This document shows positions 21,030-62,477 of a stretch of DNA of 64,000 bases, piece by piece. A model generated the notes under the pieces. It was not told the origin of the DNA. It did not search any database and was given only the letters and a program-made list of their open reading frames with translations. Source of the stretch: a virus; IMG/VR virus record IMGVR_UViG_3300036781_000275, positions 1 to 64,000 of that record. The stretch is one strand, 5' to 3'. A program made the translations under genes and the position numbers. Within the stretch, counting starts at the first letter, position 1. Each line of letters begins with the position of its first letter.

Positions 21030-21054
21030 TGCCTTAGAGAGAAGAATCTGGTCA

Positions 21055-21408
21055 TCACAAACCGTCCGCTTTGCGCATGAGCGTTTTCGCCTGCTCGATT
21101 GTAAACGCGCCACCCATGCGCCGATGAAACTGCTGCACTGCCGCTGCTTCCGACATATGCCTGAACAGTTTGATTTCCTCGGCGTTTGGAGCTGGCCATT
21201 GTGGCTGTACATCTGGCGCGAGCACGCGCACGCCGCCATCGGTTCTATAGACTTCGACCACGTTGATTGCCGGCGTAATGCCGTTGTCGAATTGGCGCAG
21301 TGAGATTAGCCCGCCAGTGCCATCGGGAAAGCTGAACTGCACGATCCGTTCGCCCGGCGCAGCACATTTCTGCGCGCCGGGCGCTGGTTCCACCTGTGCC
21401 AGCTTCAC
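21055..21408 (-). CDS. hypothetical protein
   Basis: GTG start overlapping the upstream stop; FSFPDGTGGLISLR. Confidence 0.5.
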   Translation of the reverse strand: MKLAQVEPAPGAQKCAAPGERIVQFSFPDGTGGLISLRQFDNGITPAINVVEVYRTDGGVRVLAPDVQPQWPAPNAEEIKLFRHMSEAAAVQQFHRRMGGAFTIEQAKTLMRKADGL

Positions 21409-21669: not shown

Positions 21670-21780
21670 TTGACTCCGCATTGGAAGTTGTTTGGTCTGG
21701 CCCTGCCCGATGAGATAAAGCTAACGCCTGTTAGGTGCCTGTCAAGCCCTCACGTAAAACATTGATTTTCCCACAGTTAG
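21670..21780 (-). repeat. ~110-bp promoter cassette repeat, copy 1
   Basis: TTGACA-N16-TAGCTT with CTAAC-N4-GTTAG (21721-21734); closely similar to 36133-36238 and 50684-50790. Confidence 0.85.
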
Positions 21781-23186: not shown

Positions 23187-23821
23187 CGTTGGTCCTCGGA
23201 TGATTCGTCATCAGCCGCGTCGTCTGTCACAGACGGCAGCGGTCGCATACCGAATTCCAGCGGTTTTGACGGCTCTCCTATCACAATCTGCGTCGGGTCG
23301 TCCTTCGATCTCCGCCGGCCGCGTCGCCATTCGCGGGTCACGTGCAGGTGGCACGGATAGCACAACAGACGCAAATTCGCCGGGCGATCATCACCGCCGT
23401 CTGCTACCGGGATAATGTGGTCACACTGCCACGGTGCTGCTGCGAGTGGGCACGCCGGTCCCTGCTCGCCTCGGTAGATCCGGCGCTTCTCGTTGTCCCA
23501 CGAACTGTGCCAGTCGTACCGCATCCAGCCCGGATGTTCGAGCTTGCATCGACGGCACCGCCTGTCGCGCCGCTTGATCGTCTCCGCGAGCGCCTCCCAC
23601 GACGCCACGCACAGAAATTGGTCGACGCACCCCTCGCCACAGAACGTCGATCGCCGCGGCGCGACTTCACGACCGCACCACCGACACAGCCGGCGGCCGT
23701 GCGCGCCGCGTCCAGCCGGCTGCTGCACGTCGAGCCCGCGCCGCACGCGCCACCGCCCCCATGGCGGGATGATGAGTTTTTTTACGCGATCGTGCGGACT
23801 GCCTTCGGCGAACCCGCTCAT
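23183..23821 (-). CDS. HNH endonuclease with Zn-finger
   Basis: CRWCG...FCGEGC, RD..CRRC, DHIIPVADGG...NLRLLCYPCH. Confidence 0.85.
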   Translation of the reverse strand: MSGFAEGSPHDRVKKLIIPPWGRWRVRRGLDVQQPAGRGAHGRRLCRWCGREVAPRRSTFCGEGCVDQFLCVASWEALAETIKRRDRRCRRCKLEHPGWMRYDWHSSWDNEKRRIYRGEQGPACPLAAAPWQCDHIIPVADGGDDRPANLRLLCYPCHLHVTREWRRGRRRSKDDPTQIVIGEPSKPLEFGMRPLPSVTDDAADDESSEDQR

Positions 23822-24459
23822 CGCGCGGGCTCATCATCGAGCGCGTTCACGGCACGCTCCGCTTCCGCGGCCAGCTCGGCCTGTTGGCGCGTCGATACCT
23901 TCTCCCACTCCGCCTCATCGGTAAGGCGCATCGGCAGCTTGAGCACGCCAGCCTTCGCGCGCTCTTGACTGTCGTCTTTCTCGACACTTGCCGCGGTTTC
24001 CTTCCCGTTCACGTCATGCGCGCGACGTTCGAGATCCGCCGAGAGCTTCGCCATGCGCGTCAAGTCGGTGACGTCTTTGATGTCCTCGGGCTTCATGCTG
24101 GCCAGCTTCTGCACGACCTGTAGCTGCATGGCCTTCGCGATCTTGATGTGTCGCGCCGCCATTTTTTTTCGCTCGGCCACCGCGCTCCGCGTCTCTTCGC
24201 GGGCGAGATGTCGGTCGTATTCAAGCGCCCGGCTTACCCAATCGTTTGCCTGTGACCACTTCTTGAGTTGTGGGACACCATACGGCAACCCCTTTGCAGT
24301 GCGTTTGCCGGCGGCGTTCTCAGCGGCGTAAACGATTGTCGCGGCTTCTCTTACGGTTCGTCGTGCGCCGAGATCGAGATAGACCGTGAACGCCCCGAAC
24401 GACCGCGACGATTCACGGTCGAGCGCATCCCATGGGTTGCGTTCGTCGGCTGCCGGCAT
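23818..24459 (-). CDS. terS: terminase small subunit
   Basis: PWD...ES...AF.VYLDLG.RR...WS...WVSRA.EYD; position upstream of terL. Confidence 0.75.
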   Translation of the reverse strand: MPAADERNPWDALDRESSRSFGAFTVYLDLGARRTVREAATIVYAAENAAGKRTAKGLPYGVPQLKKWSQANDWVSRALEYDRHLAREETRSAVAERKKMAARHIKIAKAMQLQVVQKLASMKPEDIKDVTDLTRMAKLSADLERRAHDVNGKETAASVEKDDSQERAKAGVLKLPMRLTDEAEWEKVSTRQQAELAAEAERAVNALDDEPAR

Positions 24460-24500: not shown

Positions 24501-25292
24501 CTACACGGTGTACGGGAGTACGATCCGCCGGCGGCCCTTATTGAGTACGCGTTTCGTGAGCGGGTTTCCTTTCGGGCTGCCGCGTTGAATGGCTTCGCCG
24601 AAGTGCGCGCGCAGAAACTGGTACGCTTCTTCTTCGGCTGTTGGGTGCCGGAATTCGGCGAGCCCGCCTTGTCCGGTGTAGGTCTCTTTGAATCCGCATG
24701 CGAACCGCTGATCGAGCCAGCAGTACCGGTGCAGTGCCGCGTTGAGCAACGACAGCCAGAAATCGCTCACGGGCAGCGAGCTGTCGGGACAGAAGAGCTT
24801 CGAGCCGGCCGCGATGCCGATGCAGCCGTCGAGCACGTAGCCACCGAACGAGTAGGGTCTGAGCTGGCGGTACGAGGCGGGATTCACGTGGGTGGCGAAG
24901 CCGAACAGATACGTGTTCATCATGACGGCGGTCGCGTAGCAGTTCTGAATGATGTCGTACGCTTCGCGGCCGGTCGTGCGGGTTTTGCGTCTGGCGCGGT
25001 TCGGGGTTTTCGAATCGGGCGCTTTGCCCATGTAGAGCCGGAACAGGCCGATGAAGTCATCATCCACCATGCACACGGGCGCAAAGTTGTTGATGATCCA
25101 CGTGCGTTTTCTGGCGATACCGATGATCGAGTCGGGGTGTGTGACGATTTGATCGGCCGCGTGATGCTTGCGGTACTCGTCGTACTGGGCTTCAGGCACG
25201 CACAGCTTGCCGCCGTCGAGGAATTGCATCGTGGTCACGCGGCCGGCGCGCTTGTGCGACGGGATGATGATCGCGCAGTCGGGGCCGTTCAC
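24501..25292 (-). CDS. GREB1/TET-associated-type glycosyltransferase
   Basis: IIIPSHKRA, VPEAQYDEY, GIARKRTWI, MVDDD, GG.. motifs (GT-A fold); GTGA overlap with the ParB-like gene. Confidence 0.7.
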   Translation of the reverse strand: MNGPDCAIIIPSHKRAGRVTTMQFLDGGKLCVPEAQYDEYRKHHAADQIVTHPDSIIGIARKRTWIINNFAPVCMVDDDFIGLFRLYMGKAPDSKTPNRARRKTRTTGREAYDIIQNCYATAVMMNTYLFGFATHVNPASYRQLRPYSFGGYVLDGCIGIAAGSKLFCPDSSLPVSDFWLSLLNAALHRYCWLDQRFACGFKETYTGQGGLAEFRHPTAEEEAYQFLRAHFGEAIQRGSPKGNPLTKRVLNKGRRRIVLPYTV

Positions 25293-26110
25293 AGGTCGGT
25301 CCCCGTGGCAGCGGGACGCAGCTCTTCGGTGAGCGCGGCGAGATCCTCGGTGACGGCTTGCGCGTGTTCGCTCGGCGTGGGCTCTGCTGGTTTCGCTGAC
25401 GGCGCTGGCGCGGGTTGCGCGCGCTGCACGCATCGTTCGAGCACGTCGTTCGCGAACATGACGGCCGTTTGTCCGAGCGAGCCTTTGCGATCACGCATGA
25501 CCTGCGGGTTCAGGAGCGTCTTCAGTCGTGCCCACTCCATTTCCGTACGACAGACCAAGATGATCGCGTTGTAACCCTCGTCCCAGTTCGGCGCGATCGG
25601 ATACGCGACGGCGCTCGGCTTGTCGTCTTTTTCGGTGGGCACGTCGTCACTGGCTTCGCGGATCGTGAGCGCTTCGGCGAGTTCGGTGAGATTGGCGTCG
25701 CCGGCCATCTGGTCGAGCAACGCGGACAGGGCGAGTTCATCGGTCTCGGCCATTTGCCCGATCGCATCGTGTGACGCGATGACCGCATCGGCCTCGTCGT
25801 CGTTGAGATCGGTGAGCAACACGGGCACGTCGCCGGTCGCGAGTTCCTCGTGCCGCAAGTGCCCGTCGATGATCGTGAGCCCACCGTACCGCGGCGAGTC
25901 GTACACGACGAGCGCTGTCGTGAAGCCGAGCCGGTTTAGCGAGAGACGGAGCGCGCTGCGTTGATCCGCGCCGTGTATGCGCCAGTTCTTCGGGTGTGTG
26001 CGCAGCGTCGCGGCGTCGACGAGGCGCATCGCGGTGATGCGGTTACGGATCCCATTAGCCAAGGCCAAGGGTGTGCTGCTGTTCGCGCTGTTGTTGGCGG
26101 GGCTCGTCAT
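25289..26110 (-). CDS. ParB/Srx N-terminal domain protein
   Basis: LRTHPKNWRIH, SL.RLGF, IIDGHLR, VPV motifs. Confidence 0.75.
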   Translation of the reverse strand: MTSPANNSANSSTPLALANGIRNRITAMRLVDAATLRTHPKNWRIHGADQRSALRLSLNRLGFTTALVVYDSPRYGGLTIIDGHLRHEELATGDVPVLLTDLNDDEADAVIASHDAIGQMAETDELALSALLDQMAGDANLTELAEALTIREASDDVPTEKDDKPSAVAYPIAPNWDEGYNAIILVCRTEMEWARLKTLLNPQVMRDRKGSLGQTAVMFANDVLERCVQRAQPAPAPSAKPAEPTPSEHAQAVTEDLAALTEELRPAATGTDL

Positions 26111-33968: not shown

Positions 33969-34802
33969 TTAGCTCGGTGTCAAGTGCTCGGTTTCCGTCG
34001 CGCCGCCCAGAAATGACTCGTACCCGTCCGCCGACTCCGCCGGCCGTTCCTGCTCGGTCAGGCATGCCGGGAGCGCTTCCCTGCGCCCGCACCACTGGCC
34101 GCCACTCCAGCGGAACCCAGCGGCCTTCAGGGCGTCCAAGGTCGCCCGCGCCGGCTTCTCGGCGAAAGTGACTGCGCAGTACTCCGCGCCGCCCGTGATC
34201 GTGAACCCGTTCGGCGCGTCTTCCGCGGCGGCCGTGCGCTGCTGGCGCGCCTTGACTTCCCCGATTCGCTGCTCGGCCGTCTTGATCTTCGCGAGACGGT
34301 TCGAGAGTCGCGCCCGCGGCACCGGCTGTTTTTCCCAGCTATACGCGTCCGCAATCTGCGCATCGATCCGCGCGGCCGTCACGTCGTTCATGCCCGGATA
34401 CCCGACCATGGTCTTGTGTTTGCGCCACCACTGATTCAGCGCCTTGTCGCGCTCCTGTTCCGCGCGCAGCTCGACGACCTTCGCTTCGAGCTGCTCCACC
34501 GCGTCCGGGTCGTCGCTGAAGATGGTGCGGTCCAATTGGTCCGACAGCCCGTGCGCCCGACCGCGGTGATGCGCGGCCAGCTTCTGCTGGGCCACCGCCT
34601 TGTCCATGTTGCTCGCCATGCGATCGAGGTCGCGCCGGTGACGGCGCTCGGAGTGGTGACCCACGAGGATCGGCTGCCCGAGCGGGATCCCCGCGACCGC
34701 GCGGTGCGCTGCGTCGCTCGCGCGCTCTGAGCGCGCGTCAGCCTTCACGGCCCACTCCGCGCGTAGTGCCAGTTTCCTCTCCAGTCGCTCCCGTCGTGTC
34801 AT
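33969..34802 (-). CDS. DUF3560-like protein
   Basis: IPLGQPILVGHHSERRHRR, IFSDDPDAVEQL, LKAAGFRWS motifs. Confidence 0.8.
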   Translation of the reverse strand: MTRRERLERKLALRAEWAVKADARSERASDAAHRAVAGIPLGQPILVGHHSERRHRRDLDRMASNMDKAVAQQKLAAHHRGRAHGLSDQLDRTIFSDDPDAVEQLEAKVVELRAEQERDKALNQWWRKHKTMVGYPGMNDVTAARIDAQIADAYSWEKQPVPRARLSNRLAKIKTAEQRIGEVKARQQRTAAAEDAPNGFTITGGAEYCAVTFAEKPARATLDALKAAGFRWSGGQWCGRREALPACLTEQERPAESADGYESFLGGATETEHLTPS

Positions 34803-46337: not shown

Positions 46338-47501
46338 TTAGCCGTCGATCCCCACTACCTCGCCGAAGGGGGCCGCCTCGATGGTTCCGGTGACTGCCCA
46401 GAGCACTGGGAGCGCCGGCGGCTCACTGGGGAAGCTCCCGGCAAGGTCCGTCAGATACACCGCGCAGACTGGCGGCTCGTCCATCGTGTCGACCGCCTCC
46501 AGTGCCGGCGCGAAGTCGGTGCCGCCGCCGCCCATGGGGCGCAGCTCGACCGGCTCGCCCTGCTCGAAGGTCTCCGCCGCGTTCACCGCCGCGTCCGCGT
46601 ACACCACGTGAATGCGCGCGGGCTGTAACTCGTCGGCAATCGCGTTGATTTCGGCCGCGAACTTCGCGAGCGTCACGTCGTCAATCGAGCCCGACGTATC
46701 CACGATCACCGCGATCGCGCCGAGCTGTTCCGAGCGCAGCGACGGCAGATACAGCCGGCGCGCCAGATAGCGAGTGTTCGGGCGCGTCCACGCGTAGTCC
46801 GCCTGTGCGGCTTGCTGCACGAATCGGCGGAGCGCTGATCGCCAGTCGACTCGCGGCTTCACGGCTTGCTTTACGAATCGGCCGAGCCCCGCCGGCAGTG
46901 CACCGCGCGCCCGTGCTGCCGCCGCGGCTTGCTGCACCGCTTCGCGCCACTCCGGTTCTGTGTTGCTGTCTTCGGTGGCATCGGCTGGCGCGTCGCGCAC
47001 TTCACCCGGCTGTTCCTGCTCGGTGCCGTGCGGCTCGCTCTGCTCTGCGTCCGGTTGCGGCGCGCCGTTCTCGTCTGGCGTTCCCTTGCCGTCCTGCCCG
47101 TCTGAGCGCGGCAACCGATCGTAAATCCACTCCGACGCTTTGCCCGTGAACTGCGCCTCGCAGAGCACGCCTTTCGGCAGCTTGAACCCCGACTCGCGGA
47201 GCATCGTGTTGATCGCGTGGTCGCACGCAATGTTCCATTTTTTCTGTTCGCGCCCGTCTCTGCGCCACGGGTGTCCGCATGCGCAGTGCATCACTTCGTG
47301 CGCGATGATGCCGACGATCACGTTGTGTGATTGCGCATCGATAAACTCGGCGTTGTAGCCGAGTGTGCGGCCGTCGACCCACGCCGTTTTGCAGCTCGGA
47401 TCCTCCACGAGCTTCAGGCGAAGCGCCAGCGCGCCGAAAAACGGTTGATCGATCACGAGCGCCGCGCGCGCCACCATCATTTTCTTTTCCGTCTGGTTCA
47501 T
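46338..47501 (-). CDS. metallopeptidase-vWA domain protein (DUF2201-like)
   Basis: TAWVDG, AHEVMH (HExxH), WNIACD.AIN, VDTSGS (MIDAS), GGGGTDF, YLTD. Confidence 0.88.
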   Translation of the reverse strand: MNQTEKKMMVARAALVIDQPFFGALALRLKLVEDPSCKTAWVDGRTLGYNAEFIDAQSHNVIVGIIAHEVMHCACGHPWRRDGREQKKWNIACDHAINTMLRESGFKLPKGVLCEAQFTGKASEWIYDRLPRSDGQDGKGTPDENGAPQPDAEQSEPHGTEQEQPGEVRDAPADATEDSNTEPEWREAVQQAAAAARARGALPAGLGRFVKQAVKPRVDWRSALRRFVQQAAQADYAWTRPNTRYLARRLYLPSLRSEQLGAIAVIVDTSGSIDDVTLAKFAAEINAIADELQPARIHVVYADAAVNAAETFEQGEPVELRPMGGGGTDFAPALEAVDTMDEPPVCAVYLTDLAGSFPSEPPALPVLWAVTGTIEAAPFGEVVGIDG

Positions 47502-47615
47502 TCGCGTTGACTCCACGTTGTGAGTGTCTCGCCTGCCTGATCCCAGCCTAACGCCTGTTAGGTGCGATGGCAAGGGGAGAAGCGGCCGGCGGCCGTCTCT
47601 CCCGATGCCGGTGGG

Positions 47616-48539
47616 CTATTCCTGCTCGGCGGGCGGCTCATAGAAGCCACTCATTGCGTCGAGAATCGACTGGGTGCGCGCCGCCGCGTCTGCCCGGAGT
47701 GTCTCCGCGGCTGACCCCGTTTCACGCAGCAGCTTGGGACTGAGCGTCATGATCTCCCGCGCGACTCGCGTGCGGATCACTTCGAGGTTCGCGTCATCCA
47801 CCACGTTCAGCCGGGCCACGAGGTCCGTCGTGTCCGTGGTTTGCTTCACGATCGCGTCGCGAATCGCGGCGCGCTTCGCCTGACCGGTTGGGCTGTCCTC
47901 GTTGATCGCGGGATCCGCGACGAGTCGGTGAATTCTGGCCACCGCCTCATAGACTCGCGACCATGTGTCCGTCATGGCATCCTTCACGGCGCTCTCCACA
48001 CGGTCCGTGATGGACTTCTCCAGCTCGGCGATTTGATCCGCCGGCAACGCGAGCCGAAAATCGCCCTGCGCTGGGAGCGGCGCGAAGTGGAGCGCGAACT
48101 CGAACTTGCCGCGCACTTCGCTCTCGGCGGGATAGTCCGCCTCGTTGTACAGGCCGTTCAGGCGCACTTTCGCCTGTTCCTTCAGCGCCGTGTAGTCGCT
48201 GACGAATTGATCAACTGCGGCCTCGAAGGCTACACGGGCCTTGCGGAGCTGCTCCGTGTACTGGAAATAGTTGGTCGACGGCAGCAGCCTCCAGCCCTTG
48301 TCAGACCACGGCAGCGCGTTGACGTCGTGGAGTGCGCGCGCGGCCGTCGCGGCGGAAATCACCTTGTTGAGACTGGTATCGGGGCCGCCGAGCAGATGTT
48401 TGTTGTACCGGCCCGCGTCACGCCCCGCGGCGTGCTCAGTGTTCACCTTGTCGGTGACCTTCTTGTCGAAGCGTCGCGCCGTCCATGTCGAGACATGGAG
48501 CTTCACGGTCAGCGCGCGGGATTGAATGTCGATGCTCAT
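47616..48539 (-). CDS. conserved helical phage protein (DUF3150-like)
   Basis: V.LHVSTWTARRFD, LPWSDKGWRLLP, LNGLYNEADYP; coupled to the AAA gene. Confidence 0.6.
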   Translation of the reverse strand: MSIDIQSRALTVKLHVSTWTARRFDKKVTDKVNTEHAAGRDAGRYNKHLLGGPDTSLNKVISAATAARALHDVNALPWSDKGWRLLPSTNYFQYTEQLRKARVAFEAAVDQFVSDYTALKEQAKVRLNGLYNEADYPAESEVRGKFEFALHFAPLPAQGDFRLALPADQIAELEKSITDRVESAVKDAMTDTWSRVYEAVARIHRLVADPAINEDSPTGQAKRAAIRDAIVKQTTDTTDLVARLNVVDDANLEVIRTRVAREIMTLSPKLLRETGSAAETLRADAAARTQSILDAMSGFYEPPAEQE

Positions 48540-49570
48540 TACTTGGTTTCTCCAGAGAGAAGTTGACCCAGCTCGCCAGAGCTGAGTTTGATGAAATCGG
48601 CTGTCTGTGTGATCGCGGGGTTCCGCCGGCTTGCATCGCGCGCCAGCAGCGCCGCGAACTCGCCGTGTTGCGCATCGATCAAGCGTTGCGCGTACAGCGC
48701 GACTCGACCGAAGTTGGTGGGCGTCGCCTTGGTCGCGAGCGCCGTGGTGATCGCATAGAGCGCCGCGGGCTTTTCAGGAATCGGCGCGACGTCGGGATTG
48801 AGCAGCACCATGTCGATGCTCGGCAACTCTTTGAAAAGTTGCAGGAAGCCGCGCAGCTCGACCGCCGCGCCATCGCCAACCGCTCCAGCAAGCGCCGCCT
48901 GCTCCACGGCCGCCGGCAAATTCATTCCGAGCACGCGGGCCGCGTTCGACCATGTGCGCGGCGTCGGACTGTTCGTGAGATCAGCGCTCGCCTTGAACTG
49001 GCTCAGCAGCTCCGGGCGGAAGCGTAGGAAGGCAATCAGCTCGGCCGGAATGTGCGACTGCGTGAATGCCCACTGGCACCACTCATCAAGATCGGCCTCC
49101 AGCTCGACGATCGCCGTGAAGCGCGACTTGACCGGTTCGAGAATGCCGCTGACGCCGGCCTTGTCGGTGCGACGATTCGTTGCCGCGATGAATGTCACAC
49201 AGTCGGGCAATTTGTGCCCGTTGACTCGGCGCGCAAGCAGGAGCTGCATGAAACTGGCCTGCACCGCCGGCGTTGCCTGTCCGAGATCATCGAGAAACCA
49301 CACGGTCGGTGCGGTCGCGTTGATCGCGCGCGCCAATTCGCCGAACGGGAGAAAGTGTGCGGACTGCTCGTCTTTGCCGACCCACGGCAAGCCCTTGACG
49401 TCGGTGGGATCCGATACGGCGGGATGGCTCAGGATCAGCTCGGCACCGACCGCCGTGGCGGCCTTGGCCACGATGTCAGATTTGCCGATGCCCGGCGCGC
49501 CCGTGATGAGGACCGGCTGTCGTGCGGCGATCGCACTGCCCAGCAGGGTAGAAAGTTCCGATGGTTTCAT
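48539..49570 (-). CDS. MoxR/dynein-related AAA+ ATPase
   Basis: GAPGIGKS, FLDDL, AATNR..DKAG, SRF, PTPRTW. Confidence 0.88.
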   Translation of the reverse strand: MKPSELSTLLGSAIAARQPVLITGAPGIGKSDIVAKAATAVGAELILSHPAVSDPTDVKGLPWVGKDEQSAHFLPFGELARAINATAPTVWFLDDLGQATPAVQASFMQLLLARRVNGHKLPDCVTFIAATNRRTDKAGVSGILEPVKSRFTAIVELEADLDEWCQWAFTQSHIPAELIAFLRFRPELLSQFKASADLTNSPTPRTWSNAARVLGMNLPAAVEQAALAGAVGDGAAVELRGFLQLFKELPSIDMVLLNPDVAPIPEKPAALYAITTALATKATPTNFGRVALYAQRLIDAQHGEFAALLARDASRRNPAITQTADFIKLSSGELGQLLSGETK

Positions 49571-50205: not shown

Positions 50206-50679
50206 TTAGTGCTGTTCGTCGTTGTTGATCACGACCACTGTGTCCGTCTCGCGGCTCACGATGTCGAAGCTCGTTGCGATGTCGCGAGATTTTTCGGTCA
50301 GAATCTGCGCCGGCACCGTCCGTGCGCGCTGCGCATTGCGTACCATCGCCGTGTTCAGCGAGCAAACCACGTAGCATAGCTCGGTCGTGAAGCCGGCCGC
50401 GCGCGCATCGCGAATGCGCCGCGTCATGCGCTCGGCGTTCGTGCCAGTGCCGTCGATGATCCAGTTACCGGCCTTGCCCGCCACCGCCGCCGCGAACTGC
50501 TGCTCGGCGATTTCCATCGAGTAGTTGTGCAGGGGAGCCGGGTTTTTCGGATCGTAATCCGGGTGTGCCGCTTTGATCGCGTCGGGATCGATCACGGTGA
50601 ATCCTTCGTAGCGCGCCCGTCCAACTGTGCTCTTGCCAGCGGCCGGAAGCCCCATGAGAAAGATCATCGTTGCCGTCAT
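50206..50679 (-). CDS. zeta-toxin-like/AAA_33 P-loop kinase
   Basis: MGLPAAGKST, IDPDAIK, IIDGTG, RN..RAR.VP. Confidence 0.75.
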   Translation of the reverse strand: MTATMIFLMGLPAAGKSTVGRARYEGFTVIDPDAIKAAHPDYDPKNPAPLHNYSMEIAEQQFAAAVAGKAGNWIIDGTGTNAERMTRRIRDARAAGFTTELCYVVCSLNTAMVRNAQRARTVPAQILTEKSRDIATSFDIVSRETDTVVVINNDEQH

Positions 50680-51778: not shown

Positions 51779-51799
51779 CGTGTTCCCTCGGTGTGAAGG

Positions 51800-51872
51800 T
51801 ATGCCGTGAGGGACTCGAACCCTCGACCTTCCGATTAAAAGTCGAATGCTCTACCTGTTGAGCTACCGGCGC
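51800..51872 (-). tRNA. tRNA-Lys(UUU), imperfect acceptor stem
   Basis: D-arm GCTC/GAGC, anticodon loop CTTTTAA, T-arm GAGGG-TTCGAGT-CCCTC; mismatches C2:A71 and G7:A66; no encoded CCA. Confidence 0.8.
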
Positions 51873-51880
51873 TGACGTGC

Positions 51881-52168
51881 TCAAATGCCACGGATCGAGC
51901 GGAGGACTCGCCGATCTTTCCGTTCGGCGTCAAACAGGTCCACTTCTCGCTGCACATTGAGCCAGAACTGAACTGACGTGTTCAGCGCCTTCGATAGGCG
52001 TAGCGCCACCGCCGCCGTGACCTGTGCGCGGCCTCGCACGATGTTGCGAACACGATGAGCTGGAAACTTCATGCGGGCCGCTAAGCCTTTCTGCGTTAGA
52101 TCAGGATGTTCGCGAATGTAATTGCCGAGCACTTCGCCCGGCGTTGGCGGCCGTACCGGTCTTCTCAT
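51881..52168 (-). CDS. higA: HigA-family antitoxin (orphan)
   Basis: PPTPGEVL, LTQ..LA, IVRGRA.VT..VALRLSKALNTS.QFWLNVQ. Confidence 0.85.
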   Translation of the reverse strand: MRRPVRPPTPGEVLGNYIREHPDLTQKGLAARMKFPAHRVRNIVRGRAQVTAAVALRLSKALNTSVQFWLNVQREVDLFDAERKDRRVLRSIRGI

Positions 52169-52193
52169 GTCGCGCTCCACGGAGTGTGTTCTG

Positions 52194-52664
52194 TCATTCG
52201 CCGCGCACGTCGAGCGGCTTGCCGTCCCGCATGTACCGGAAGAATCTGACACGGACCATCACATCATCACCGAGCCCCGGCCGATAATTCCCCTCATGCA
52301 AAAAGTCGTCCGCTACCGCAACCCACCCTGCGCGATCTCGCCGATTCTCCAGCAACACACTCTCGATATACGCGGCCGTCTCCGTGCTCGGCTGCCGCGT
52401 CCCACCAGCGTCAACCGTGAATTGCACTCGTGATTTGCGAATCACGAGATCGCGTTCTTCGAGTTCACGCGTCGCGCCCAGCAGCGCTAAGTGCTCGACA
52501 TCGCACGTCAGCAACTGCACGCTGCGCGTCATGATGATCTCCGCGAGCTGCGACGCCAGCATCGTAAACTGAATGAAATCAGCGCGGCTCTGTTCGTCCT
52601 GCACGCTGAATACGATGCTGCCGCCGGCGGTCGCGTGAATGGATACGTTCGTGAGAAGTCTCAT
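52194..52664 (-). CDS. hypothetical protein
   Basis: ATG just after variant operator 52676-52689. Confidence 0.5.
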   Translation of the reverse strand: MRLLTNVSIHATAGGSIVFSVQDEQSRADFIQFTMLASQLAEIIMTRSVQLLTCDVEHLALLGATRELEERDLVIRKSRVQFTVDAGGTRQPSTETAAYIESVLLENRRDRAGWVAVADDFLHEGNYRPGLGDDVMVRVRFFRYMRDGKPLDVRGE

Positions 52665-52787
52665 GGCACGCAAACCTAACACATGTGAGGACAGGCACGG
52701 AAGGCTTCGAGGATCTCCACATTCCCACGCGGTTGTTCTGGTAGTGCCAGTTAGTCGACACACCGGAACCAGTAACTGTAATAGTAG

Positions 52788-52971
52788 CGTGGATAAGCGT
52801 GGATAACTCTGTAACTGATTGCGGTTGCTAACGTTGACGCTGATTTACTTCTGTGGAAATCGTGTGCATAACGTGTCGACAAGTCCGGTTGTCCACTCAC
52901 CGTGAGGCGCGCGCCGCGGGCGAGGTGGAGAACGGGAGCGGATCCACAAGTAATCCACCGAGTTGTCAACA
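52788..52971. promoter_or_regulatory. DnaA-box cluster, putative replication origin
   Basis: ~10 TT(A/G)TNCAC(A)-like 9-mers in a lower-GC intergenic gap. Confidence 0.7.
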
Positions 52972-52981
52972 GTCGTGCGGG

Positions 52982-53449
52982 TCAATACGGCCAGCATTCA
53001 ACGCGGCGCGGCACACTGGCCGCTTCCTCCGCGCTCGATGCTACGCGGATCGGCCCCATAGGCACGTGAAACCTGACGGGCTCGCGCTGGCCAGTCGTGA
53101 TGTCGCGCACGAGCACGCAGACCACGCGGCGCGCCAACCACTCGTGGTCCTTCGGGTCATAGATCTTCTCTCCGAATAGCACGAACGGCCGCCGCTCTTC
53201 GTGGTACAGCTTCCTGAGAGCGCTCTCCGCCACGCTGCGCACCATGTGATAAATCGCGTCTTCGTCTGCATTCACATTCGCGAGGAAATCAACCGTGAAC
53301 GTGCATGGCAGTTCGCGCGGAGATCGATCGACCACGTTCCCGCTGAGCTGGATCCAGTACCGTACGGAGAGCACGTTGTCGATCAATTCGATGCGCCGCC
53401 CCAGTTTGCCGACGATGCTATGCTCGCCCGGATACGTACCGACGCTCAC
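52982..53449 (-). CDS. hypothetical protein
   Basis: ORF overlapping the upstream stop. Confidence 0.45.
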   Translation of the reverse strand: MSVGTYPGEHSIVGKLGRRIELIDNVLSVRYWIQLSGNVVDRSPRELPCTFTVDFLANVNADEDAIYHMVRSVAESALRKLYHEERRPFVLFGEKIYDPKDHEWLARRVVCVLVRDITTGQREPVRFHVPMGPIRVASSAEEAASVPRRVECWPY

Positions 53450-53784: not shown

Positions 53785-54723
53785 TCAGCGCGGACGTGTC
53801 ACGTTGTAATACTGCGACAGCCCCTGCACGTGGTACGGCGCGATGATCCGCGCGAGTGCCCGCGTCCCGTCGACGTCGCCGAAGTTGTACGTGATGATGT
53901 CCTCGTGCTTGCCGGCCAGATAGGCCGCGTATACCTCGCTCCCGTGCATGCCCGCCTTACCGGGCAACCCGAACGCGGCAAGCCACTCGTCGAGTTTCCC
54001 GGTCGCCCGCATGTCCCAATTCGAGAGCGCCATGCGCACGTCGAAGTGCGGACAGTGCCGGTAGCGTTGAAACAACGTGCCAAGCTCGAACGGGTTCGGC
54101 AACGCCAGCGGCACGGTTAACTCGTCTGGCAATACGATGCGCTCACCCACCGGGATCTTCGCGACTAGCGCATCGCGCGTGCGCTTGATCTGCCCGCGCA
54201 GAATGTGCGAGCGCACCACGCCGAACGTGAGGTCGAATGCGCCACTGTACGTGACCACGAGCGCTGCGCCGCTGATCTGGCGCAGCATCGAGTCAACGAC
54301 GCCCGTTTCCTCCTGCTCATCCTTCGCGTAGAAACACACGCGATCGCGCGCGGTCTCGTCGCGCCAAAAGGTTTCCGGGGTATCCGTGAGCACCGCACAG
54401 CTCAGAATGCGGCCCGTGCGCGCCGACAAGCCCAGTTCGCCCACGCGCTCGGCGCGCTCGACTTCGAGCTTCATCATTCGCTCAACCTGCTTCTCGGCCC
54501 ACGTGGTTTTATCCGTCTCGCGCCACGCATCGATCGTGTCTTGCTTCTTGTAGCTCTTCGGTGCCGGCCGGTCCTCTTCGCTGTAGGTCTCCGCGTTGAT
54601 GACGGCTGACCGCTTCTGAATCTCCTCGTCGATGCGCGCCACCTCCGCGTTGATCGGGATCGTCTCGATGTCCACGGTACAGATCGCGCCGCCGTGGTAC
54701 TCGTACTGATTGTCGTACGCCAT
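53785..54723 (-). CDS. DnaQ/PolB-type 3'-5' exonuclease
   Basis: VDIET (ExoI), VTYSGAFDL (ExoII), HFD, YNFGDV (ExoIII). Confidence 0.8.
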   Translation of the reverse strand: MAYDNQYEYHGGAICTVDIETIPINAEVARIDEEIQKRSAVINAETYSEEDRPAPKSYKKQDTIDAWRETDKTTWAEKQVERMMKLEVERAERVGELGLSARTGRILSCAVLTDTPETFWRDETARDRVCFYAKDEQEETGVVDSMLRQISGAALVVTYSGAFDLTFGVVRSHILRGQIKRTRDALVAKIPVGERIVLPDELTVPLALPNPFELGTLFQRYRHCPHFDVRMALSNWDMRATGKLDEWLAAFGLPGKAGMHGSEVYAAYLAGKHEDIITYNFGDVDGTRALARIIAPYHVQGLSQYYNVTRPR

Positions 54724-54800
54724 GTCGTGTGTACTCCGCCGCTGGAGTGAAATAGGTGAGCGCGCAACCTAACAGGTGTTAGCGCTCATTCGCAAGCCGC

Positions 54801-55784
54801 TCAGGGATCGTCTTCCGCAAACGTGGGTGCCAATTCCAGATCGACCTGCTCGGTCTCTAGCGCACCAATAGCGCCCACGTTTTTCACGGCCTGTCGATAG
54901 TACGACGGTTTCAGTTCCGCGCCAACCGCGCGTCGGCCAGCGCTCACTGCGCTATAAACTTCCGAGCCAACGCCCATAAACGGCGTGAGCACCGTCTCGT
55001 TTGGATTGGACCAAAGCACAAGGCACCGATCTATCACGTCGAGCTGCAACGGATGCACGTGCTTCTCGTCTTCGGCATCACGCGCAGCGCGATATGGTAG
55101 TACGCGGCCGAGGCGAATGTCATCCCAAAACGCTGACGCATATTGTCGCCAGATCCAATGCGAGTAGCGGTTCTCGATTTGGTTGCCGGTCCAGCCGCGA
55201 TACCGTAGTAACTCAGCCGGCATCACGCGTTCTCCCGCGTACTCCATAAGTCCCGTGGGATGCGCAATCGGAATCGTGTTCTGTCCAGAGCGCCTGAACA
55301 CAAGAAGATAATCGGCCGACGCCACCGTGCACCGCGACGAATCTTCCACGATAGACTTATGCGCAAGCGCTTTCGTCATGGTGCGATTGCGCACGGCGAG
55401 CGGTTCCTTCCAGATGTGGTAGCGCGCGACGTAGTGAAAGCCGATCTTCTCGTGGAGGCGAATGATGTCACCGGGAAAATCGGTCAGCGAATCGAGTCCA
55501 GTGTTGCCGGTTGGAACGTCCATGCAATGCACGGCCGTCATGCGCCCCGGCAGGGTGAGGCGATGGATCTCCCTGACCACAAACTCGTAGTGGGCGAAAA
55601 ACTCCTCGCGGTTGGCGCAGTTCGATAGATCGCGGTCGCTGGATGAGTAATGGTAGAGCCCAGCGAACGGCGGAGAATAAATAGACAGATGGATGCTGGA
55701 GTCTGGGAGATTCTGCATGACCTCCATACAGTCGCCAGAATAGAGCGCGTACCTATCGGTGATTACCTGTTCGGCAATAGCCAT
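54801..55784 (-). CDS. DNA amino-methyltransferase (N4-C/N6-A, beta class)
   Basis: SPPF motif IV, KHVHPLQLDVI, VLTPFMGVGS motif I. Confidence 0.88.
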   Translation of the reverse strand: MAIAEQVITDRYALYSGDCMEVMQNLPDSSIHLSIYSPPFAGLYHYSSSDRDLSNCANREEFFAHYEFVVREIHRLTLPGRMTAVHCMDVPTGNTGLDSLTDFPGDIIRLHEKIGFHYVARYHIWKEPLAVRNRTMTKALAHKSIVEDSSRCTVASADYLLVFRRSGQNTIPIAHPTGLMEYAGERVMPAELLRYRGWTGNQIENRYSHWIWRQYASAFWDDIRLGRVLPYRAARDAEDEKHVHPLQLDVIDRCLVLWSNPNETVLTPFMGVGSEVYSAVSAGRRAVGAELKPSYYRQAVKNVGAIGALETEQVDLELAPTFAEDDP

Positions 55785-57142
55785 GATGGTATTTGTGTTG
55801 ATTCGCTAAATGTGGATTGGCGCTCGAGCGCCATCTCGTGATTCATATGCTGAACCAACGAGGAGAACATTTGATCGGCGGCCTGTGATTTCCGCTGGAG
55901 ATTCTGCTTGATCCCTTGCCCGCCAGCCGTGGTCACAATGTCAACGGTCACCGGCCGGTTCTGCCCGAAGCGCAATGAGCGGCGCACCGCTTGATAGTAT
56001 GCCTCGAACGAATGCGATGGAAAAAACGTCATGTGCGCGCAATGCTGCCAGTTTAGGCCCCACGCGCCGATCTTGGGTTTCGTAATAAGCACGCGGATCT
56101 GACCGCGCGCAAATCGTAGAAAGGCGTCCTCTTTCTCGTCGTCAGAATTGGCCCCGCTGATCTCTACAGCGTCGGGGATTAACTGCCGAAGTTGCTTGCC
56201 CTCGTCGTTCAGGTGGCACCAGACAACGGCGGGCTCGCCCGTATTGTTTACGAGCGATGCCGCACGCTCACAGCGTTCCGCGAGCGTGCGACGTGCTTCT
56301 TCGCGTTCTTCCCAGAGTCCATGCGCTGGGAGATCGAACAGCATGCCTTCGCGCGTATTTCTAGCATCCACGACGTGCTCTTGCTCGATCAATGGCGGTA
56401 GCACAAACCGCATGTCGCTAAACCCGAGATCGGATGGCCGTCGAATCGCCCGTGCCCACGAGCACACCCACCGCCAAAAATGCTGTTCGGCGTGACCCTT
56501 GAATCGCCATTTCGCCGCACCGCCGTATTGCCGGCCGGTTGCGGAATTGTTCAGATCGTTCTTGAAAAACCGATTCAGCATGTCCATATACCCAAGACAC
56601 CCGAGCGCTTCGCTCGTCGTCCCCAGCTCTATGTAGTCGTTCGGGGCGGCAGTCGCCGTGCAGAGTAACCGGTATTGCATTTTCTTCATGAACGCCGTCA
56701 CGGCCTGTCGTCGCGCGCCGTCAAATGATTTGATCGCGCTCGATTCATCACAGATCACACCGACATAATCAGCCGGATTGAAATGGTGTAGCCGTTCATA
56801 GTTCGTGACTGTGATACCGGCATGGCGGGTGCCGTCGATGGACTTGCGCACTTCGATGCCGAACTTGGCCCCCTCCTCAACGGTTTGCGCCGAGACCGCC
56901 AGTGGAGTGAGAATCAACACACGGCCGTTTGTATGCCTGACCACGTTGTCAGCCCATGCCAATTGCATCGGCGTTTTCCCGAGCCCGCAATCCGCGAAGA
57001 TCGCACCACGTCCCTTGCGGGTAATCCATTCGACGAGTGCCGCCTGAAAATCGAACAGGAACCCGTGTGCTGAGGTCGCCGCGAATCCATCCATCGACCC
57101 AATCTGGGCTTTCGCATCGAGAAACTTCTCGTAGTCCGTCAT
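55763..57142 (-). CDS. SNF2/DEAD-like helicase
   Basis: ADCGLGKT, DESS, TATAAPND, GLNWQ, QAVRRS.RFGQ. Confidence 0.88.
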   Translation of the reverse strand: MTDYEKFLDAKAQIGSMDGFAATSAHGFLFDFQAALVEWITRKGRGAIFADCGLGKTPMQLAWADNVVRHTNGRVLILTPLAVSAQTVEEGAKFGIEVRKSIDGTRHAGITVTNYERLHHFNPADYVGVICDESSAIKSFDGARRQAVTAFMKKMQYRLLCTATAAPNDYIELGTTSEALGCLGYMDMLNRFFKNDLNNSATGRQYGGAAKWRFKGHAEQHFWRWVCSWARAIRRPSDLGFSDMRFVLPPLIEQEHVVDARNTREGMLFDLPAHGLWEEREEARRTLAERCERAASLVNNTGEPAVVWCHLNDEGKQLRQLIPDAVEISGANSDDEKEDAFLRFARGQIRVLITKPKIGAWGLNWQHCAHMTFFPSHSFEAYYQAVRRSLRFGQNRPVTVDIVTTAGGQGIKQNLQRKSQAADQMFSSLVQHMNHEMALERQSTFSESTQIPSWLLPNR

Positions 57143-57927
57143 CCGCGAAACCGTCCGCACTCCGCCATCATATGCGGCTCCTCGATCGGGCATTCGAGGT
57201 GCGCGTGATGACATGTCATGTCGGGATACGCGATCGAAAACGTCACGGTCTCATGGCTCGGATAGTGCGGCTCGTGGCGGCAGTTGTACGGCGCACGCCG
57301 CTCGGTTTTGCCTTCCTCCAACCACACGCCGTGCATCAGCTCGTACAGCACTTCTTCATCGGCGCTGAGTGGCCACGTTGGTACTATCTCATCCTCGGAC
57401 CGGTCGCTCATCTCGCGCGAATGCTCGGCGCAAACAGTTCGTCATGCGATTCGATCTCGCAGAAATAGTCCACCCCGATCCGCCGACGCGCCGGCCGCAA
57501 ACACTGCGTGCTATGCGGCGCTGAATGGTGCTGGCAATACCGGCCGGGAATGATCGGCGGGAGCACGCGCGGCGCATACTCGCCGCGCCGGCGTGACGTG
57601 ATGTAATCGCCCACTGATTCGTATCCGTGCCAGAACATCACGGATCTCCACGCGTCGCAGCGTCAACGATTTGGCGCTCCGTGATCCCCATGCGGCCAAG
57701 CCCAGCCGCCAAACCATGCCGCGCCAGCTTCATCAGCCACTGACGCTGCGTCTCCGACGTCTCGTTCCATTCCTCATCGCTCAGCTCGAACGGCGTCGTC
57801 GAGAACGCGCTGCCATGCGGCTCCTGCTCGGCCATCGCGGCCGCAATATGATCGGGAAGGCACGACGCGCGCATCGCGCGCGCCGCGGCCTCAACCGCGA
57901 CAACTGGTAAGCGGACGGTGCCCATGG

Positions 57928-58401
57928 TCAATCGGGAATGTCGTCGTCGTTCGTGAGTCCGTCCTTCCACGGCTCGGGCGGATCATCGCTGGCGGGGCGC
58001 TGTGAATCGCTCGTCGGATCGAACGCGTGATCCGTCGAATCAAATGCGCCGCCGTCGCCCTCGACGCGCTCTTCGCCATCGCGCTCATCACCGGGGATCG
58101 TGCCACCGGTCAAGTCGATGACCTCGCCGCCCTTCGCGGGCGGTTCGTCGAACGGGAGATCCGGCTGCTCTCCGACCACGTGCGATTCCGGCGCGGGCTC
58201 GTCCATGATCTGCGGTTTGATCTGATCGCGAATTTCCGCCGCGATCGACAACATCGTGTCGTACCCATCCGTGGGCACGCCGAACTCGCTCGCCTTTTTC
58301 TTCTGCTTGCTCAGGGCGCTTTCGTATTCGGCGAGCGCGTTGTTCACGACGTTGCGCTGCCGGCCGAAGAGCCTGAGTACCATTTCGCCATTCTCGTCCA
58401 C
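57928..58401 (-). CDS. hypothetical protein with acidic tail
   Basis: ends DGLTNDDDIPD, reminiscent of SSB-like acidic tips. Confidence 0.45.
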   Translation of the reverse strand: MDENGEMVLRLFGRQRNVVNNALAEYESALSKQKKKASEFGVPTDGYDTMLSIAAEIRDQIKPQIMDEPAPESHVVGEQPDLPFDEPPAKGGEVIDLTGGTIPGDERDGEERVEGDGGAFDSTDHAFDPTSDSQRPASDDPPEPWKDGLTNDDDIPD

Positions 58402-58441
58402 GTGCCGCTCCGTGTTCGTCAGGGGGGAGAAAGAGTGTGCG

Positions 58442-59956
58442 CTACGCGCAGACGCCGACCTCGCTCTGCATTTTGCGTTTCATCGCGATGATCGCGTCAG
58501 CCCGTGCGCCCGGAAACATCTCACGAATCTTCTCCGGTGCCAAGGTCTCGGCCGCGCGGAGATTTGTGGCGGTATCGATGCGCGCTCTTTCGAACGCGGC
58601 TTCGTCTTCGTCCTGTGCGTCGAGCTGTTCCGGCGTGCGATCGCGCAGCAAGTCGCCGAGCGGTGGCTCGCTGGGCAACGGCACCGGTGTCTCCGTGGTC
58701 GTGGCGAGATGCACCACGCAGAACGGATCCTCAACGCCGTCCTTGCACGTGCATTCCTGCGAGAGCGCGGCGGGCGTTGGTTCGCCGCGCGACAGGTGAT
58801 CCGCGATTTGCGCGGCGCTCGCCGAGCCCAACGGTGGAAGCGGCGCGCGGAGCTGCGGAGCCTTGGCGTCTGGCGCTGGCGTCGCGCCGGCCATCGACTC
58901 AGCGCGCAGTCCTGCCGCCGCCCTGAACAGGCCAGTCGGCTCTAGCCCAGCTACCGGGTCTCCGTCCAGTGTCACGACGTCGCCGCCGAGCGATTCGGCG
59001 AGCGCCGCGTCGGCCGCCGCGTTGTTGCGGTCCTCCAGCTCCGCGGAGAGATCCGCAAACACCTGCGCGATGCGCTCGTTGTCGGGCTGTTTCGCCGCGG
59101 CACCTTGAGCGCGCGCGTACCCGTCCTTCAGCACGTCGAGTGGCAGTTCGGGCAGCGGCTTGCCCGCGTGCTCTTCGAGCCCCTTCATCTTCACGAACCG
59201 CGGCCCCTCATATTTCCGCGCCACGACCTTCTCCTCGGCTTTCGCCGACGACAACCATCGGCGAATGTCGCCAGCCACGTCCGGGTCTTTGAGATCCCAC
59301 AGCGTGTCCGCGTCCGTCCCGAACAAGCCCGTGTTGTCTTTCGTGCAATGCGCCGAGTGCGATGGCATCACGTCGAAGACCAGCGCGAATTCATATTCCG
59401 TGCCCTCGCGCACCGTGGGGTTCACGCCGAGCTTGATGGGCTTCTTGCCGCCGTTGTGGTCGACGAGCTGATACTCCTGCTTCGAGCGCGACGTCGCGAT
59501 CACGTGCACGGGCGCTTCCAGAATGTGCCGGATCAGATCGTCCCATTCGCGGCCGAACATCTTCCAATTCGCGAAGCCATTCGAGCCGGGGTTCGCCTTG
59601 TCGTACTTCTCCTTGCGGTCGAGCAAGTCCTGCCACGCGTGATGCAGCGAATCGATCACGACCACTTTGAATCCGGCCGCGACGGCCGCATCGAGCGCGG
59701 CTTTGTACGCGGCCGGCGTGACCGAACCGATGTCGCTGAGCGAGAGATGCTTGAACGGAAACTCGTCCGCGTAGTACAGCATGCGGTCGTTCTCGCTGTC
59801 GATGGCCGCGATCTCGCCCACGTCGAGCCCGCGCGCCAAGTAGAGCGCGCCTTTGCTTTTGCCGGATCCGCTCGGCCCGTTGATCATGGCTTTGAGCTTG
59901 ACCTTGGCTCGTTCGGCGGTGCGAAAGACGAACGCCGTGTCTGGTTTGGCTGTCAT
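58442..59956 (-). CDS. Sak4-like (AAA_24) ATPase/recombinase with long C-terminal extension
   Basis: GPSGSGKS, IDSE, VVIDSL.H.W, REGTEYEF, KDNTGLF. Confidence 0.85.
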   Translation of the reverse strand: MTAKPDTAFVFRTAERAKVKLKAMINGPSGSGKSKGALYLARGLDVGEIAAIDSENDRMLYYADEFPFKHLSLSDIGSVTPAAYKAALDAAVAAGFKVVVIDSLHHAWQDLLDRKEKYDKANPGSNGFANWKMFGREWDDLIRHILEAPVHVIATSRSKQEYQLVDHNGGKKPIKLGVNPTVREGTEYEFALVFDVMPSHSAHCTKDNTGLFGTDADTLWDLKDPDVAGDIRRWLSSAKAEEKVVARKYEGPRFVKMKGLEEHAGKPLPELPLDVLKDGYARAQGAAAKQPDNERIAQVFADLSAELEDRNNAAADAALAESLGGDVVTLDGDPVAGLEPTGLFRAAAGLRAESMAGATPAPDAKAPQLRAPLPPLGSASAAQIADHLSRGEPTPAALSQECTCKDGVEDPFCVVHLATTTETPVPLPSEPPLGDLLRDRTPEQLDAQDEDEAAFERARIDTATNLRAAETLAPEKIREMFPGARADAIIAMKRKMQSEVGVCA

Positions 59957-60097
59957 GCGATGGTTCTCCCTTGCGTCCACGTGATGAGCGTCCTACGTTG
60001 CTCGGTGTTGCACGCCTCCGGGGCGTGTAGTGAATGGCCTGTGTAATACCCTTGCCTTCGGCGGCTCGCACGTCATCTCGTGCGGGCCGCTGTTGCA

Positions 60098-62404: not shown

Positions 62405-62477
62405 GAGCAGGGACCGGACTCGAACCGGCAACCTCCGAGTTATGAGCCCGGTGCGCTACCAATTGCGCTACCCTGCG
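62405..62477 (-). tRNA. tRNA-Met(CAU), initiator-like
   Basis: cloverleaf with CTCATAA loop, GGG 5' anticodon stem, unpaired C1:U72; no encoded CCA. Confidence 0.85.

Follow-up and report, generated by a model that had tools for sequence, protein, structure and literature searches.

The stretch analysed here, hereafter the window, comprises bases 1-64000 of the 73,323-bp IMG/VR virus record IMGVR_UViG_3300036781_000275 (CheckV completeness 100%), and the element in question is a dense cluster of DnaA-box-like 9-mers in a non-coding gap at 52665-52981. This gap of 317 bp, which holds the whole element, lies between two ORFan genes on the minus strand, a 155-aa gene upstream (52982-53449) and a 156-aa gene downstream (52194-52664, ATG at 52664-52662), inside a long co-directional transcription unit. 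Its borders were drawn from the map of open reading frames (ORFs) and from the GC content at the three codon positions. With a GC content of 0.55 it differs from the genome at about 0.63, and the ORFs that overlap it have a flat GC1/2/3 profile (e.g. 0.48/0.56/0.53) in comparison to about 0.65/0.43/0.78 in the true neighbouring genes. Because the overlapping ORFs lack this codon-position signature, we regard the gap as non-coding. A first model-based inspection of the letters, the sequence-only reading, had reported a lower-GC intergenic gap of about 230 bp: low GC content and lack of coding potential were borne out, whereas the distance between the called genes is longer. The same inspection had named a coding function of the gap as fatal to its proposal, which does not apply given the flat codon-position GC. 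A structured RNA in the gap was considered as well, but dropped because Rfam returned no match and the z-score of the RNA fold was only -1.03.

Within the gap, the ten DnaA-box-like 9-mers of the sequence-only reading were all found again by eye and in a motif scan, with the same coordinates and strands, and an eleventh site, box 11 (ATCTCCACA, 52713-52721, plus strand), joins them, with which the boxes together span 52713-52971 (about 260 bp). Followed along the minus strand, which is the direction of transcription, the element starts 11 nt past the stop codon of the 155-aa gene with array B, three weak plus-strand boxes at 52940-52971 (GGATCCACA at 52940, TAATCCACC at 52951 and TTGTCAACA at 52963) separated by 2 and 3 bp. 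It continues with an isolated weak box on the minus strand (TTCTCCACC, 52924-52932), an adjoining segment of 72-80% GC (approximately 52898-52923) and a plus-strand box at 52889-52897 (TTGTCCACT), one mismatch away from the high-GC variant TTGTCCACA. Array A follows at 52852-52882, with three boxes on the minus strand (TTGTCGACA at 52874, TTATGCACA at 52863 and ATTTCCACA at 52852) and two gaps of 2 bp; TTATGCACA is an exact fit to TTWTNCACA. A low-stability spacer of 45 bp with a GC content of about 0.42-0.45 (52807-52851) separates array A from the strongest boxes, a tandem pair in which TTATCCACG occurs twice on the minus strand with a 1-bp gap (52788-52796 and 52798-52806), together a perfect 10-bp duplication. 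Beyond the pair come CTACTATTA, box 11, a promoter-like unit immediately downstream of box 11, and the start codon at 52664.

The scan against randomised controls that had been proposed as a check placed the density of boxes far above background. Only three sites with at most one mismatch to TTATCCACA occur in the 73,323-bp genome, all of them in the gap, and 11 of the 91 sites with at most two mismatches fall into 52700-52990, where 0.36 would be expected under an even spread. None of 3000 first-order Markov simulations with the composition of the gap reached this number (mean 0.71, maximum 5), nor did any of the 1679 other letter permutations of the motif (mean 0.73, maximum 7), and the reversed motif had 0 sites. 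Likewise, the gap is the top 300-bp window genome-wide (11 sites; best elsewhere 3), and the core TCCAC is found eight times in it versus 0.58 expected. Seeding with the gap's own most repeated 9-mers recovers the DnaA-box motif, and the consensus of the 11 sites, with counts after the letters, is T8 T9 (A5/G3) T11 C10 C9 A11 C11 A6, which is the DnaA box. The dense oriC-like cluster is real and, with 11 boxes instead of about ten, even stronger than first claimed; DnaA probably binds the sites in the gap.

Besides their number, the sites are also ordered in their spacing. When 11 sites were placed at random 200,000 times, the three pairs of co-oriented neighbours with exact 2-bp gaps had P=0.002, and the five co-oriented neighbours with gaps of 1-3 bp had P=0.0005. 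For the weak arrays of E. coli oriC, exactly 2 bp between sites are described, with the sites co-oriented in each array and opposed between the halves (PMC4451416). Arrays A (minus) and B (plus) have this layout of low-affinity arrays, being oppositely oriented with mostly 2-bp gaps.

The tandem pair and the DNA next to it carry the sequence signature of the bacterial basal unwinding system (BUS). The published criteria ask for a DnaA box with at most 2 mismatches, usually a second co-oriented box with at most 4 mismatches within 3 bp, a spacer between 0 and 16 nt long, with a peak at 10-13, and three or more DnaA-trios of the form NAN with the consensus 3'-GAT-5' (Pelliciari 2021, PMC8287927). 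Opposite the strand that reads 5'-TTATCCACA-3', its complement carries the trios, immediately 3' of the boxes, and their orientation could be fixed because Table S1 of that work gives the elements in the 3'-to-5' direction (PMC8287927). In the phage, TTATCCACG at 52798-52806 has one mismatch to TTATCCACA, the second TTATCCACG at 52788-52796 follows on the same strand after 1 bp, and the spacer amounts to 10 nt (1 + 9 + 0), inside the published peak. Three consecutive consensus trios (3'-GAT GAT AAT-5') abut the proximal box at 52779-52787 on the plus strand, i.e. complementary to the boxes and, compared with the rows of Table S1, in BUS orientation. The minus strand from 52806 to 52770 reads TTATCCACGCTTATCCACGCTACTATTACAGTTACTG, with CTACTATTA directly after the tandem pair; a single interruption (GTC) separates the trios from three additional NAN triplets at 52767-52775. 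The pattern (TA[GA])x3 occurs a single time in the phage genome, at 52779-52787, and the looser ([TA]A[GA])x3 seven times on both strands. The trios of the phage would score about 11, an estimate that builds on the Table S1 entries of Pelobacter (GATGATGAT, scored 12) and S. aureus (scored 19) and not on the scoring scheme. The pattern TTATCCACN{2,4}TTATCCACN{1,6}CTACTA (two exact 8-mers with CTACTA at most 5 nt on) has 11 matches across 596 Gbp of bacterial genomes, several of them oriC-like, with runs of CTA repeats and then AT-rich DNA.

The module also coincides with unstable DNA. In a nearest-neighbour free-energy scan, 52771-52870 ranks first as the least stable 100-bp window of the 73-kb genome, which makes it the candidate unwinding region, and 52771-52820 ranks second among the 50-bp windows.

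The promoter-like unit that closes the gap (52675-52712, minus strand) belongs to a recurrent arrangement of the phage. The palindrome CCTAAC-N4-GTTAGG occurs with at most one mismatch in 14 copies in the window, compared to 0.04 expected, all of them intergenic and in the early/middle region; the 16-nt copies start at 21720, 26832, 33958, 35808, 42237, 46301, 47547, 49617, 49923, 50730, 52675, 54768, 60379 and 61941. In a minus-strand alignment, each copy is preceded at a distance of 4-6 nt by a hexamer similar to TTGACA or TTGCGC; at its other end it merges into a TAnnnT hexamer, behind which comes a conserved leader with GGAG. This arrangement suggests sigma-70-type promoters with an embedded operator for some phage regulator. 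The unit in the gap is a degenerate version with a -35-like hexamer, the palindrome (one mismatch, 52675-52690) and a TAnnnT hexamer resembling a -10 element; a generic scan for sigma-70 promoters and terminators over 52500-53100 found nothing. Because the other 13 copies come without a cluster (none lies in a 300-bp window with more than three boxes), we consider the approximately 260 bp of boxes an extra element and not part of ordinary expression signals. Transcription that leaves a promoter is described to produce a negatively supercoiled wake that is helpful for origin opening (PMC5043065), and the unit in the gap is directed away from the boxes, toward the 156-aa gene.

In the direction of transcription, the element comes directly after a replication/recombination module on the minus strand (53785-59980). 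According to PHROG and Pfam, this module encodes an AAA_24 (Sak4-like) ATPase (58442-59980), an SF2 helicase (55763-57214), an N6/N4 DNA methylase (54801-55784) and a PolB-exo2-like exonuclease (53785-54723). The family scans covered 95 ORFs of the window with PHROGs, 81 with Pfam, 12 ORFs of the region from 64 to 73 kb with PHROGs and 19 with NCBIfam; ORFs shorter than 45 aa and most of those on the plus strand were not part of the set, and ORFans are numerous among the genes. No Rep/O-type initiator, DnaA homologue, DnaB-type helicase, DnaC/P-type loader or DNA polymerase was found in these scans. The earlier statement that no initiator, primase or polymerase was recognised is only partly right: a DUF3560 protein (33969-34802) gives a weak 'primase' PHROG match (4e-18), and with the AAA_24 ATPase, the helicase, the exonuclease and the DNA methylase other genes of this kind are present. 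An iteron/Rep-type origin does not fit the gap either, as its repeat is only 10 bp x2 and no initiator family is matched; no iteron-like repeat cluster was found elsewhere in the window, where the other tandem repeats are coding.

Based on these features, we propose that the gap is a compact, oriC-like replication origin that works without a Rep protein and depends on host DnaA, with titration of DnaA as a side effect, an assignment for which we see about even chances. The sequence-only reading had offered initiation by host DnaA and titration of DnaA as two options. Recognition by DnaA is strongly supported by the sequence in either case, and initiation is favoured over pure titration because the box pair, the DnaA-trios and the low-stability region form the signature of an unwinding module. 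In such an origin, host DnaA would occupy the strongest sites first, i.e. the TTATCCACG tandem at 52788-52806, whereupon the weak arrays at 52852-52882 and 52940-52971 would fill cooperatively, with the 2-bp spacing putting DnaA on one helix face, and this filling would raise the local DnaA concentration. An oligomer of ATP-DnaA could then extend from the tandem pair onto the trios of the plus strand (52779-52787) and open the least stable DNA of the genome. Transcription from the unit at about 52675-52712, leaving the module, would leave additional negative supercoils in the wake of the polymerase, which would assist the opening. Host DnaB and Pol III would be loaded after opening, and later, recombination-driven replication would fall to the AAA_24 ATPase, the SF2 helicase and the exonuclease of the phage. 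Since each phage copy brings 11 sites, titration of host DnaA is an expected side effect, and with every new copy the host oriC would be increasingly deprived of DnaA. A more far-reaching version, which we put forward only tentatively and which may well not hold, is that the gap is the sole origin of the phage, a complete Rep-less oriC-type module capturing host DnaA, DnaB and Pol III, by which a virulent-looking siphovirus would replicate as a mini-chromosome.

Some of the same features would also be compatible with other functions. Host DnaA could act in transcription control, repressing or activating the unit at about 52675-52712 together with read-through from upstream, and expression of the 156-aa ORFan and of the HigA-like helix-turn-helix (HTH) protein and tRNA-Lys behind it would then track the replication or growth state of the host. 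In line with such a control, a promoter unit of the standard type occupies the low-coordinate side of the gap, its -35-like hexamer closely preceded by box 11, and the gap itself is located within a co-directional transcription unit. However, 11 sites over 260 bp with opposed 2-bp arrays and trios exceed what promoter control needs, and the strongest boxes lie 70-130 bp upstream of the promoter unit and not over it; with the generic sigma-70 scan finding no promoter and the 13 other unit copies lacking a box cluster, this function appears unlikely. A pure DnaA sink of the datA type, which is amplified with the phage and removes DnaA from the host oriC without any role at a phage origin, would profit from the very high site density with 11 sites per genome copy, and titration would follow automatically if DnaA binds. 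Yet a sink needs neither trios in BUS register nor the least stable DNA of the genome beside the strongest boxes, it works only after replication from some origin, for which no other candidate was found, and the IHF consensus that one would look for by analogy to datA was not found; we rate a mere sink as quite improbable.

The sites could also belong to a phage-encoded protein, an initiator or a regulator, with a motif that resembles the DnaA box. Phage origins usually lie in or beside the initiator gene, both flanking genes are ORFans of unknown fold, one of which might be the candidate, and the gap has two GTCGAC-centred palindromes. Against this stands that the consensus of the 11 sites equals the DnaA box position by position, that the sites are non-palindromic, graded 9-mers instead of uniform 17-22-bp iterons or dyad operators, that trios and 2-bp spacing are DnaA-specific, and that the phage's own recurrent operator-like palindrome differs in sequence, which leaves little probability for a protein of this kind. 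As a further explanation, the gap might hold a signal for injection stop or membrane anchoring comparable to T5 iss, or a decaying relic of a captured host oriC without function. T5-like phages do have eight conserved non-coding DnaA boxes, which are argued not to be an origin; these iss boxes, for which a function in injection arrest is proposed, form pairs with a distance of 3 bp, and the pairs sit in large inverted repeats of the terminal repeat (bioRxiv 10.1101/866236). The inverted repeats in the gap, in contrast, are imperfect, measure at most 16 nt and enclose no box pairs 3 bp apart, and the element lies about 20 kb away from the 127-bp terminal repeat of the record. For a relic, one would expect less ordered spacing, and no bacterial, plasmid or phage DNA matching the gap was found. 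Both variants are therefore highly improbable.

Several findings weigh against an origin in the gap. All sites were scored by mismatches to TTATCCACA, from which the box preferred by the host may differ, and no perfect TTATCCACA is present in the gap, where the best sites carry a G at position 9, a variant that Table S1 nevertheless gives as a BUS box of two high-GC bacteria. The trios are only three in an unbroken row, with 0 bp before them instead of a GC-rich gap of 3-5 bp, and the DNA beyond them has about 48% GC and lacks a long AT-rich tract. The 3.5 kb around the gap contain no IHF site with at most one mismatch to the consensus WATCARNNNNTTR, although the host motif may differ. GC skew, another of the checks proposed earlier, was uninformative both raw and detrended: the detrended cumulative curve peaks at 50,850 and is lowest at 24,292, with no origin-type switch at the gap. 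An unrecognised initiator could be hidden among the ORFans. Furthermore, the phage encodes a homologue of the TET-associated glycosyltransferase (TAGT, 24501-25433, Pfam) whose neighbourhood hints at hypermodified phage DNA, and such a modification, if present, could affect recognition by DnaA.

The comparison with other viruses adds to these objections. DnaA boxes of phages need not be origins, because the IMG/VR elements that combine a box pair with CTACTATTA (CTACTA) adjoin terminase and not replication genes, and because of the T5 boxes described in the preprint cited above. The sole structural relative, G001, which was recognised by its terminase (50% identity), is a 26.9-kb IMG/VR fragment of 44% completeness without an exonuclease homologue and without the gap region, and has one box versus one in the control. 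Among nine loci in IMG/VR with AAA_24 homologues, the cluster is present in none; the maximum per 300 bp is four boxes in eight of them (GC 0.45-0.67) and six in a locus of 30% GC. These nine loci are no test of conservation, because no other neighbouring gene is common to them and the phage.

Closer relatives did not turn up. The region has no DNA match in 50,697 phage records, nor in plasmids, in searches for near and distant similarity, and the exact 19-mer of the tandem boxes is absent from IMG/VR. No syntenic relative was found via the flanking genes and the exonuclease in IMG/VR, or via the major capsid protein in bacterial genomes; the exonuclease retrieved itself and one protein at 29% identity. 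Similar arrangements of boxes do occur in other viral contigs. In six IMG/VR loci (L110, L115, L116, L117, L120, L121), a conserved tandem TTATCCACA pair is followed by CTACTATTAGCTATTGACA and a third box; the element of L116 (L116:2001-2031) is BUS-like and has a packaging-gene context, about 200 bp upstream of the gene for the large terminase subunit. A 50,088-bp IMG/VR contig with a locus GC of 0.60 has about ten DnaA-box-like sites, seven of them with at most one mismatch, in an AT-rich gap at L049:1461-1708, immediately downstream of a 459-aa ORF with a DUF5906 domain (primase-helicase-type NTPase), and a similar cluster of 12 DnaA-box-like sites is found at L018:1462-1761. Many low-GC contigs of viruses and giant viruses (e.g. 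L066:1501-1693, L073, L024 and several GVMAG records) have a tandem 10-bp TTATCCACCT repeated two to five times and then a conserved TTTAGAAAAGGTGGAGCCAAA-like tail.

Regarding the genome as a whole, the minus strand carries nearly all of the genes, and PHROG and Pfam scans identify a siphovirus with tape-measure and tail proteins, a major head protein (8092-9234), a portal (17441-19174) and the large (21777-23186) and small (23818-24459) terminase; endolysin and Dit are encoded in the final 9 kb of the record. The presence of capsid, portal, terminase and tail genes together with the absence of dnaA sets this complete phage genome apart from a piece of chromosome with its oriC, which typically neighbours dnaA/dnaN. 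No integrase or repressor was matched among the phage ORFs in the PHROG and Pfam scans. The 127-bp repeat at both record ends may be the overlap of a circular assembly. The DNA was detected in a single sequencing run, a soil metagenome (kept as contigs), which may be its source, and no RNA run containing the phage sequence is listed. The relatives of the portal, with 28-29% identity, belong to phages of Pseudomonas, Stenotrophomonas and Xanthomonas, whereas Streptomyces and Phenylobacterium are the bacteria for which Table S1 gives the TTATCCACG variant of the box.

For the 156-aa protein next to the gap, the only match among 5.8 billion clusters is the protein itself, Pfam, PHROG and NCBIfam give nothing, and its Atlas model has a predicted local distance difference test (pLDDT) value of 0.39. 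The 155-aa protein likewise matched only itself in an exhaustive phmmer search of 1.84 billion representatives, with empty family scans, and the ESM Atlas has a usable match for neither of the two. A short distance downstream of the gap lie the HigA-like HTH protein (51881-52252), tRNA-Lys(UUU) (51798-51872) and, at 50206-50679, a short protein resembling Zeta_toxin/AAA_33 kinases. In the early region, a MoxR-like AAA ATPase (48539-49570) and a DUF2201 metallopeptidase/VWA protein (46338-47573) form a pair. A tRNA-Met is found at 62405-62477. The TAGT homologue and the ParB-like/methylase-like protein that adjoins it (together 24501-26110) are located just before the small terminase gene, and an HNH endonuclease gene (23183-23821) stands between the two terminase genes. 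Repeats in coding DNA include a 15-bp unit repeated 17.9 times (92% match, 20666-20934) inside a 283-aa ORF (20388-21239, weak DUF6197 match), where it translates into a series of 5-residue protein repeats, and degenerate repeats with a period of 60/120 nt in a stretch of 74% GC, in which a 543-aa ORF without a family match lies among the head genes (12669-14300).

DnaA boxes at phage and plasmid origins, the box set of T5 and the bacterial BUS are already known. For a BUS or DnaA-trios in a phage, or a Rep-less phage origin of the oriC type, no report was found in literature searches on the subject, the nearest being the T5 iss proposal. Textbook phage origins use a phage initiator (lambda O, P2 A, P4 alpha, SPP1 G38P), or transcription or recombination, and host DnaA is at most a helper in them, as at P1 oriR. 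If the gap is an origin as proposed, a minimal BUS would be portable and sufficient outside chromosomes, and replication of the phage, possibly with shut-off of the host via DnaA titration, would be tied to the initiation potential of the host. Besides, biochemistry would gain a natural 'minimal oriC' of 260 bp from a high-GC system. If the more far-reaching mini-chromosome version is true, amplification of the phage would strip DnaA from the host origin, and the box-pair/trio elements in uncultured phage contigs would form a wider undescribed class using DnaA.

In comparison to known systems, the element has features in common with several of them. P1 oriR and iteron plasmids, in which a Rep protein binds 17-22-bp iterons and DnaA serves as a helper, are likewise replicons that recruit host DnaA via origin boxes, but the phage was found to have neither a Rep gene nor iterons. 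The titration locus datA, in which about five boxes are spread over roughly 1 kb together with an essential IHF site and which lacks an unwinding module, shares with the phage a DnaA-box cluster outside oriC that could lower free DnaA; the phage differs by its 11 boxes in 260 bp, its trios and the missing IHF consensus. T5 iss, as described in the preprint, likewise belongs to a virulent siphovirus and is a non-coding region densely set with ordered DnaA boxes of consensus or near-consensus sequence, whereas the site analysed here is internal, lies beside replication genes, has trios and lacks inverted repeats of that kind. The low-affinity DnaA arrays of E. coli oriC, reportedly worked out by Rozgaja in 2011, come close to the phage element in their 2-bp-spaced weak 9-mers, the opposed orientation of the arrays and the stronger anchoring sites alongside. 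Unlike in E. coli, where an array has four sites, the phage arrays have three each, one gap measures 3 bp, and there is neither a 13-mer-type unwinding element nor clustering of GATC (two by eye). As for the unwinding module, boxes 6 and 7 of incC in B. subtilis are said to act as BUS, according to work of Richardson from 2016 and 2019. Unlike the bacterial examples, the module described here resides in a phage and not beside dnaA on a chromosome. It also lacks the GC-rich 4-bp gap and the long AT tract behind the trios. Its three contiguous trios compare with nine in B. subtilis and four in S. coelicolor, and the E. coli entry of Table S1, with a spacer of 10, has three trios and is scored 7 (PMC8287927). 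In the same table, the upstream BUS box of S. coelicolor and of Phenylobacterium zucineum is TTATCCACG, as in the phage, and the first three trios of the phage, GAT GAT AAT, are the same as those listed for B. subtilis (PMC8287927).

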